From Gemmatimonadota bacterium (GTDB lineage: Bacteria; Gemmatimonadota; Gemmatimonadetes; Palauibacterales; Palauibacteraceae), in NCBI GenBank assembly GCA_963666735.1, contig OY762926.1, positions 1,664,001-1,728,000 on the forward strand: DNA of 64,000 bases. The letters are read 5' to 3'. How positions within the stretch are numbered: the stretch's first letter is position 1; each line of letters starts with the position of its first letter. Positions 51,397 through 52,477 of this stretch are shown here, piece after piece. The position numbers and the translations under genes were made by a program. The notes under the pieces were generated by a model. The model did not search any database and was not told where the DNA came from. It saw nothing but the letters and a program-made list of their open reading frames with translations.

Positions 51397-51816
51397 TCAT
51401 CTGGCGAGGAGGCTCTGGAGACTCCACCGCGAGGCCGTGACTTCGTGTGGATCGGACAACGTTCCGTCGCATGGCGCGATGCGAAGCCGGAGTTCGTGCT
51501 CCCGGGACCGGTGCGCCGGCAAACAACTGACGCTGGCGGAATCCGCCCCCACGATCCATGTCGCCCGCTGCACTGCCTGGTTCTGAGGGAGCGGTGGCTT
51601 CAAACCGTCTTCAAGCATCGTTTCAATGTAGAGGTGCTTGGCGTCCTGGAGGTTCCACAGCGCCTCATCGGGCGTATCGCCGTGGCTCGTGCACCCCTCC
51701 AACTCAACGACGCGGGCGACATAGTACGACGATCCGTCATCAAGAACCTCTTGCAGGATCCGCTCTCCGTAGGGCAGGCTCATGTAGTAGTTGATGTTCC
51801 CTGCTTTACTGCTCAC
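51397..51816 (-). CDS. hicB: HicB family antitoxin with C-terminal extension
   Basis: YYMSLPY...YYVARVVELEGCTSHGDTPDEALWNLQDA...PLP, plus a ~60-aa tail. Confidence 0.88.
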   Translation of the reverse strand: MSSKAGNINYYMSLPYGERILQEVLDDGSSYYVARVVELEGCTSHGDTPDEALWNLQDAKHLYIETMLEDGLKPPLPQNQAVQRATWIVGADSASVSCLPAHRSREHELRLRIAPCDGTLSDPHEVTASRWSLQSLLAR

Positions 51817-52061
51817 CAGACATCTCCTGCCGCCTCGAGTCTGTCGATGAGGTCCAAGGCATCCCTCACGTACACGTTACGCACCGGGTCGTGCCGCGCA
51901 ACGGTCGCTCGTAGCTGTGGATAGACGGGATGACGATAGATCACATGCTTGCTCCCTTCACGTCGGTCGAACCCGTAACTGCGGTAGAGCTTGTGAAGTT
52001 CGCGAAGCCTCCAACCGGCGGGCGACCGGCGCATCTTCTCGCGCAGCTTCTCATCGCCCAT
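51813..52061 (-). CDS. hicA: HicA family toxin
   Basis: YGFDRREGSKHVIYRHP...VARHDPVRNVYVR. Confidence 0.88.
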   Translation of the reverse strand: MGDEKLREKMRRSPAGWRLRELHKLYRSYGFDRREGSKHVIYRHPVYPQLRATVARHDPVRNVYVRDALDLIDRLEAAGDVW

Positions 52062-52477
52062 CAGGACGGAGGATGATCTGGACCCTCGATCAGCGTGACC
52101 CGGAACCTCAGTGTCTTCTTCAAATCGTTGTTAACGAAGATCGAGATCGAGTAGTCACCTTGCTTGTCGAACGAGAGGTTCTCGAGGCGGAGGATTTGAT
52201 CCATCTTGAGGATCTCGCCCGGCCGCGAGGGAGGCGCCCTGAATTCGCCGTTGATCGCAAACGCCGTTGCACCGTCAGCGTCCATGCACTTGATCTCGAC
52301 GGAGTGCTCACGTTCTCCTTCCGCTACCCCCAGCTCCAGACTGACAACGAGGTGCGCTGAACTGATCCTGGCGGGAAGGCGGTTGGTTGCCACGCTGTTG
52401 AAGATGCCCATCACGCTCAGTTTTCCTTCGCGCGAGATGCTGGCGTAGTCCGCCAGCGCGGCAAGAGCGATCTCCAC
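52061..52477 (-). CDS. DUF6941-like beta-rich protein
   Basis: ALADYASISREGKLSVMGIFNSV...LSFDKQGDYSISIFVN; stop overlaps the hicA start. Confidence 0.75.
   Translation of the reverse strand: MEIALAALADYASISREGKLSVMGIFNSVATNRLPARISSAHLVVSLELGVAEGEREHSVEIKCMDADGATAFAINGEFRAPPSRPGEILKMDQILRLENLSFDKQGDYSISIFVNNDLKKTLRFRVTLIEGPDHPPS

Follow-up and report, generated by a model that had tools for sequence, protein, structure and literature searches.

The locus raises the question of whether a protein of the DUF6941 family is a working part of the toxin-antitoxin system that it accompanies. The window, i.e. the whole 64,000 nt stretch of Gemmatimonadota DNA that was analyzed, has three genes within less than 1.1 kb, which the original prediction described as overlapping DUF6941-like, hicA and hicB genes. 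This description is correct: there are three open reading frames on the minus strand, where DUF6941 and hicA overlap by 1 nt (TGATG) and hicA and hicB by 4 nt (GTGA). The three-gene arrangement is real, widespread and apparently undescribed, and DUF6941 probably represents a novel type of helper that maintains antitoxin function.

The DUF6941 protein aligns with positions 2–125 of the 125-position PF22091 model (92.9 bits, cut-off 27). An alignment of the HicA subfamily shows that G36 and H39 are nearly invariant. The HicB core has a weak match to the solved HicB structure 6g1c (E-value = 0.018). The cassette has a G+C content of 60%, compared with 71% and 73% in its flanks, and both of the flanking genes that mark the site recur in relatives. 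Close homologues are assigned to Candidatus Palauibacter by their sources. A consensus scan showed no sigma-70-like promoter, and PADLOC gave no match for any of the three proteins. Features of the locus are listed in Table 1.

Table 1. Positions of the three-gene cassette, its surroundings and the comparison locus in the window
Feature	Position	Strand	Remarks
DUF6941 gene, first in cassette	52061..52477	-	138 aa; PF22091, E 2.5e-26
hicA toxin gene	51813..52061	-	82 aa; PF07927, E 6.8e-5, 23.3 bits, under the 27-bit cut-off
hicB, whole open reading frame	51397..51816	-	139 aa; PF15919 on residues 26–79, E 2.4e-7
hicB core, residues 1–77	51586..51816	-	partial RNase H-type; expected from homology to bind the toxin
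hicB C-terminal tail, residues 78–139	51397..51585	-	62 aa
W87 codon of hicB	51556–51558	-	stop in DUF6941-less relatives
GGAG ribosome-binding-like site	52487..52490	-	9 nt before the DUF6941 GTG start; read from sequence
44-nt direct repeat, upstream copy	52555..52598	.	91% identical to the other copy
44-nt direct repeat, downstream copy	51346..51389	.	brackets the triad with the upstream copy
D-2-hydroxyacid dehydrogenase gene, flank	52595..53641	-	PF02826; outside the system, site marker
Dihydrodipicolinate-synthase-family gene, flank	50300..51196	-	PF00701; site marker
higB (Gp49) - higA (HTH + long tail) - weakly SecB-like gene	16144..17459	-	comparison locus

DUF6941 is predicted to be an all-beta, Ig-like sandwich. 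The AlphaFold2 model (29 sequences) has a pLDDT of 93.5 and a pTM of 0.84 and displays nine strands and no helix of four or more residues, which supports the claim that the protein is beta-rich and not of the SecB type. The best fold match is the Ig domain of AlkC (5vi0; Z 10.2, rmsd 2.0, 99 residues aligned), followed by the Wzt carbohydrate-binding domain (6o14; Z 9.8, rmsd 6.0, 108 aligned), and below these are many tied matches. UNC119 also matches the model (Foldseek E-value = 2.6e-3). The predicted fold is shared with these Ig-like binders, however identities are 9%–17%, ties are many, and a common fold says nothing on function. According to the model DUF6941 is no SecB homologue, since its sole Pfam match is PF22091 and the confident model is free of helices; SecB proteins have a large helix in common, as described in the accessible text of PMC3581621. 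SecB is missing among the listed matches of both fold searches, which was not counted as proof.

At the level of 50% identity the family forms at least 1175 clusters (E ≤ 0.001). Searches with DUF6941 found nothing at E 0.01 among plasmids and annotated phages, nothing among PDB sequences below E 0.35 and no match in NCBIfam, and an atlas search returned DUF6941 clusters only. In the order to which the window belongs, 48 of 61 genomes have DUF6941, mostly as a single conserved gene with no toxin link, and a copy of this kind is also present in the window's genome.

The HicB tail had been described as about 60 aa long and devoid of an RHH or HTH domain. This holds, as a profile scan of the window tail detects neither at E ≤ 0.1. 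In the curated table described below, all 34 DUF-linked HicBs have 25–66 poorly conserved residues after the core and are without RHH or HTH, and none of the 24 HicBs that were aligned matches an RHH or HTH family at E ≤ 0.01; all five control HicBs match PF05534. Six open reading frames that precede MazF, PIN or ParE toxins are inferred from their gene position to be antitoxins. None of the six has a Pfam match; by eye, their N-terminal stretch is rich in V, I and T and gives way to a short end that is acidic or helical. S, T, V, A and P abound in the DUF-linked HicB tails. An aromatic residue is present in 30 of the 34, and aromatics are not enriched over the cores. The window tail terminates in LLAR and has no plain ClpX-type end. 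The first ~10 residues of the tail may be HicB's own last strand, because short HicBs have a similar stretch at their end; this reading is based on the HicB topology beta-beta-beta-alpha-beta given in the accessible text of PMC10865869.

The tail sequence QAVQRATWIVG had been described, with the caveat of chance, as an echo of RAVQRLRYVKV in the tail of a “SecB-associated HigA at 16.7 kb”. The echo is attributable to chance: an exact match of four residues arose in 165 of 2000 shuffles, and 764 of the 2000 reached an equal alignment score. AVQR is found in two of 75 tails, both from the window's own clade. The HigA in question does have a third gene beside it, however this neighbor is SecB-like only weakly, its sole PDB match being the SecB-like Rv1957 (E-value = 0.13), with no Pfam or NCBIfam match. 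The locus is a probable ordinary TAC module. Its HigA tail ends in LSLVA and it adjoins one of the palindromes described further below.

A survey of gene neighborhoods came out in favor of the original prediction: DUF6941 is strongly enriched beside toxin-antitoxin pairs. Eighteen regions of relatives were fetched, picked mainly from genomes that have extra DUF6941 copies. Six display DUF6941-hicA-hicB at ~40% identity and in differing locations; in a seventh (L032) hicA is gone and DUF6941 is fused in frame to HicB. Wider samples came from motif scans that are biased to relatives of the window's DUF6941, and the figures given refer to the matches listed. On genome contigs with at least 340 nt downstream of DUF6941, 7 of 74 loci among the matches listed have the triad or its remains. 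Outside the Gemmatimonadota the figure is 5 of 19, again among the matches listed, with these loci in Thermodesulfovibrionales, Anaerolineales, Dehalococcoidales and Chloroflexi OLB15, the last just 3′ of a phage capsid gene.

The pattern for the metagenome scan was designed to skip the solitary Gemmatimonadota DUF6941 clade. Among the matches listed, 78 of 80 flanked loci have a DUF6941 match, and 61 of these have room downstream; in 13 of the 61 a toxin-antitoxin pair directly follows DUF6941 (seven HicA, four PemK/MazF, one PIN and one ParE). As a baseline, there are five hicA-like loci in the window's 3.98-Mb genome. Nine of 17 pattern matches in viral contigs are DUF6941, and five of the nine are toxin-linked. 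The viral contig L407 has the order hicA-hicB(tail)-DUF6941, which is the TAC order, and its HicA is 43% identical to the HicA of an RHH-type pair. Another viral contig, L408, has an antitoxin-like open reading frame, PemK and an integrase. Gemmatimonadota, Chloroflexota, Nitrospirota and viral contigs all have the triad, and the gap to the next gene is -7 to ~30 nt in most toxin-linked loci across phyla.

In a tree of DUF6941 sequences the HicAB-linked members are scattered, with 16 changes, at least five of which are forced by well-supported branches; several of the rows scored as having no toxin are 651-nt loci without visible neighbors. The DUF6941s found with MazF, PIN and ParE toxins form one clade (support 97).

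The converse was also analyzed, i.e. whether the tail goes with DUF6941. HicA or HicB profiles were searched in whole genomes, 301 of Gemmatimonadota, 36 of the genus, 151 of a sister family, 351 of Chloroflexota, 251 of Nitrospirota and 251 of Dehalococcoidales. Seventy-five loci were curated by hand. Left out were duplicates, loci at contig ends (L173, L207, L221, L300/L329), eleven short DUF6941-less HicBs without a profile-detected HicA, and L407, which was found later. Six divergent HicAs count as intact by virtue of their position and size; of the four that were scanned, none had a Pfam match. Where HicA is intact (46 loci), 30 loci have both DUF6941 and the tail, none has DUF6941 without the tail, two have the tail without an intact DUF6941, and 14 have neither (five RHH, nine short HicB). 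Where HicA is broken or lost, the numbers are four with both, eight with the tail but no intact DUF6941, and 17 with neither. Thus HicA is dead in eight of the ten tailed HicBs that lack an intact DUF6941. In the remaining two, L304 keeps the tail and HicA but has an internal stop in DUF6941, and L388 has an apparently usable HicA that is missing ~10 N-terminal residues. A tailless HicB beside DUF6941 was found in none of the 34 DUF-linked loci, although the dependence model permits such an intermediate. Of seven hicA loci in Chloroflexota, three have DUF6941 and the tail, and four have an RHH HicB and no DUF6941.

The window's orthologous site gives a closer comparison. Five genomes have a hicB of ~90% identity at this site, and in these DUF6941 is absent and the tail is cut at residue 77–87; HicA is intact in three. 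A stop at W87 is found in three and the upstream (5′) junction is common to four. Because the junction type and the W87 stop are shared, the five cases represent one event of loss followed by further erosion. The HicB tail does go with DUF6941, and the Fisher p value of 5e-10, which ignores kinship, overstates this association, since a tree of HicB sequences holds only three independent pairs on well-supported branches; 1.8 of these go the same way and 0 the opposite way (p 0.5), which is not significant once the tree is taken into account. Decay affects many nearby modules, so the joint loss of DUF6941 and tail could be erosion. The window's genome also has a second hicB of the same subfamily (C1:1575292–1575731, L316/L335) with an intact tail, a hicA cut at its 5′ end and no adjoining DUF6941.

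The TAC systems, e.g. the HicAB-type system of Methylomonas methanica MC09 and HigB1-HigA1-Rv1957 of M. tuberculosis, offer the closest comparison. As described in the accessible text of PMC5105189 and PMC3581621, TAC and DUF6941 modules have in common a type II pair with a coupled third gene, a variable, unstructured antitoxin extension, a third gene reused across several toxin families, solitary relatives of this gene in many genomes, and a patchy spread. In TAC the variable extension makes the antitoxin dependent on its dedicated partner, and the dependence is gone when the extension is removed (accessible text of PMC5105189 and bioRxiv 10.1101/2024.02.24.581848). There are differences as well, within the same portions of these papers. 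The pairs in TAC belong to the HigBA, MqsRA or HicAB family, and the window pair agrees with this as a HicAB pair, its HicA match being under the cut-off. The third protein is SecB in TAC, whereas in the triad it is the all-beta, Ig-like DUF6941. The TAC order is toxin-antitoxin-chaperone, whereas DUF6941 comes first in the window and in the 34 curated loci, with L407 the exception. All TAC HicBs carry RHH (PMC3581621), whereas the DUF6941-linked antitoxins are without a DNA-binding domain. Unlike in TAC, DUF6941 also partners with pairs of the MazF, PIN and ParE types, whose antitoxins are extended at the N-terminus. The extensions of TAC antitoxins have ChAD motifs centered on aromatic residues (PMC5105189) and a hydrophobic ClpX degron at the C-terminus; the DUF-linked tails are not aromatic-rich, but most contain an aromatic residue and 16 of the 34 end in Ala. 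The triad is TAC-like by genomic signature but no member of TAC, because its third protein is not SecB, its order is usually reversed and RHH is absent.

Other known systems overlap with the triad in part. Like the antiphage HigBAC and CmdTAC (accessible text of bioRxiv 10.1101/2024.02.24.581848), in which a phage protein diverts the chaperone and so frees the toxin, DUF6941 modules are found in prophage-like and viral contigs and have an extension that, by analogy, a phage protein could compete off; the fold of the third protein differs. In the classification by Gerdes (2024), as far as it is given in the accessible text of PMC10865869, class 1 hicAB shares with the triad a hicA placed before hicB, overlapping genes and no DNA-binding domain, however class 1 HicBs are 67–97 aa long and come from a two-gene operon, and the window HicB has 139 aa and a coupled upstream gene. 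HicBs of classes 3 and 4 have a C-terminal HTH or RHH and the window HicB has neither. Relatives that lack DUF6941 and have a cut tail resemble class 1. The triad is absent from the HicA-context classes compared (classes 1–6 and the legend of all 14), and the main text of the same paper, in its accessible part, does not mention chaperone, SecB, immunoglobulin or extension.

DUF6941 is not mentioned in the literature that was searched; the family name is recent, and older or subscription papers or supplements may hold such loci unnamed. A search on toxin-antitoxin systems with a third component, an immunoglobulin-like protein and a chaperone gave nothing specific, and DUF6941/PF22091 is absent from one supplement of PMC13069673. 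According to PMC10440598, its own prediction does not extend to multigene systems.

We lean towards the reading that DUF6941-hicA-hicB is a TAC-like system in which DUF6941 is a non-SecB stabilizer that binds the HicB tail, the toxin being freed when DUF6941 is diverted. A role as tail-binding stabilizer appears likely because the pattern matches the reports on TAC (accessible text of PMC5105189 and bioRxiv 10.1101/2024.02.24.581848). The Ig-fold DUF6941 would bind the unstructured HicB tail, probably by addition of a tail strand to the edge of the sandwich. While bound, it would keep the tailed HicB stable and the HicA RNase would be held off, as is the case with SecB-like chaperones in TAC. 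The tailed antitoxin would presumably be unstable by itself, and other clients, e.g. unfolded or phage proteins, may draw DUF6941 away and so bring about release of the toxin. DUF6941 is first in the operon and would be present before toxin and antitoxin are translated. Of the original proposal of a tripartite system, the enrichment beside toxin-antitoxin pairs and the association of tail with DUF6941 speak for it and the supposed motif echo in the HigA tail has fallen away; we infer a chaperone or sensor role for DUF6941 as had been proposed.

The same co-occurrence data would be explained if DUF6941 were a protease adaptor or trigger that binds the tail and promotes removal of the antitoxin, perhaps in response to a phage or stress ligand. 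Adaptor-assisted degradation of an antitoxin is known in the case of TrfA and MazE (accessible text of PMC8165232), the best fold matches include Wzt carbohydrate-binding domains, and 16 of the 34 DUF-linked tails end in Ala compared with 12% of the genome's long open reading frames, however short control HicBs often end in Ala as well. An activator can be lost without harm, in agreement with L304, L388 and the absence of loci with DUF6941 and a tailless HicB. But if DUF6941 can be lost freely, a tail together with an intact HicA should be common in its absence, and this was seen in 2 of 16 cases; the dead HicAs beside tailed HicBs that lack an intact DUF6941 also argue against an adaptor, and we consider this explanation unlikely. 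It is improbable too that DUF6941 is a passenger, i.e. independent cargo of toxin-antitoxin cassettes, with an unrelated tail and joint losses due to general decay. Most DUF6941 copies do stand alone or have neighbors of unrelated kinds (nrdR-reductase, DUF2911, cyclophilin), breakage of several types is seen in many Palauibacter-type modules, and the outcome of the tree-corrected test agrees with a passenger. The tight gaps, the four toxin families and the two gene orders do not, nor does the replacement of the DNA-binding domain by the extension in every DUF-linked HicB (30/30 and 4/4). In addition, the other DUF-linked antitoxins (6/6) are without a Pfam match; in DUF-less pairs, by contrast, the antitoxin is short or of the RHH type.

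Lastly, DUF6941 might make up for the missing DNA-binding domain in a different manner, as a scaffold that oligomerizes HicAB through the tail, or as an anchor, without control over antitoxin stability. Absence of DNA-binding domains from antitoxins at DUF6941 loci would fit such a role, and conservation of DUF6941 is highest in an N-terminal hairpin (residues 10–26). To our knowledge operator-binding proteins are not typically Ig sandwiches, which counts against it. The natural in-frame fusion in L032 (positions 2623–3411) speaks for a scaffold, however it is a product of hicA loss among near-identical neighbors (93% to L033–L035), and a weak search of 7994 scored candidates revealed no other longer, fused form of DUF6941. 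We regard a scaffold as very unlikely. The AlphaFold2 model of L032, in which HicB is represented by only five near-identical rows, shows a DUF6941 part with pLDDT of ~95, a tail of 28–38 and an unfolded HicB core. L032 and L033–L035 lie after tRNA-like sequences (read by eye). In L364, hicA has been lost as in L032 but there is no fusion.

Most DUF6941 genes are not toxin-linked, and such copies often adjoin folding genes. A cyclophilin was found in 18 of 83 upstream proteins that were scanned, and L233 (positions 455–4002) has the order dnaK, DUF6941, a 111-aa open reading frame and dnaJ. Other neighbors are DUF2911 and nrdR with ribonucleotide reductase. A more general reading is tentative: DUF6941 may be a second antitoxin-chaperone family, unrelated to SecB, an Ig-fold holdase recruited repeatedly by HicAB, MazEF, VapBC and ParDE by way of N- or C-terminal addiction tags that replace the DNA-binding domain, found also beside DnaK/DnaJ and cyclophilins, and a sensor in phage defense or folding stress. 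The chaperone-addicted toxin-antitoxin systems found in the literature all use SecB-like proteins, and these can double as phage sensors. If the reading is true, a second, unrelated fold would mean that chaperone addiction arose convergently; its range would include N-terminal tags and the toxins MazF, PIN and ParE, and the large DUF6941 family would have its first function. The compact triad also comes with natural counterparts that are tail-less and DUF-less.

Several metagenome contigs (L175, L187, L194, L197 and others) display cyclophilin, DUF6941, an HD-domain gene and a phospholipase D gene (cardiolipin-synthase-like) in that order. A prophage immunity region (L396, positions 561–3248) has a repressor, DUF6941, a 92-aa open reading frame with a hydrophobic N-terminus and low-complexity tail, and an integrase; no toxin was recognized in this region. 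The conserved solitary DUF6941 of the genus (L001, L039, L041, L043, L046) branches amid the HicAB-linked ones as sister to L038 (support 92) in an unrooted tree, a position that hints at a domesticated toxin-linked copy.

The direct repeat that brackets the triad contains a palindrome core, and a third core is present at 51272–51285. There are 55 copies of the palindrome in the genome versus 0.05 expected. It is perfect, 14–20 nt long and intergenic, and in the window it is found at positions 15884, 20874, 51272, 51355 and 52564. The readings as a HicB operator and as a centromere-like site were rejected: HicB is without a DNA-binding domain, and the 55 copies are genome-wide with no clustering at dnaA (2.695 Mb). 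Pairs of palindromes ~1 kb apart sometimes bracket small inserts. In relatives (L295, L297, L355–L357) a conserved, promoter-like element of 100 nt comes after the palindrome and ahead of small genes that differ, an arrangement that may be analogous to a cassette hot spot. Another low-G+C insert in the window, at 55200–56396, has an antitoxin-like open reading frame with a SocA/Panacea domain (PF13274), which adjoins a short coiled-coil open reading frame with 21-nt repeats.
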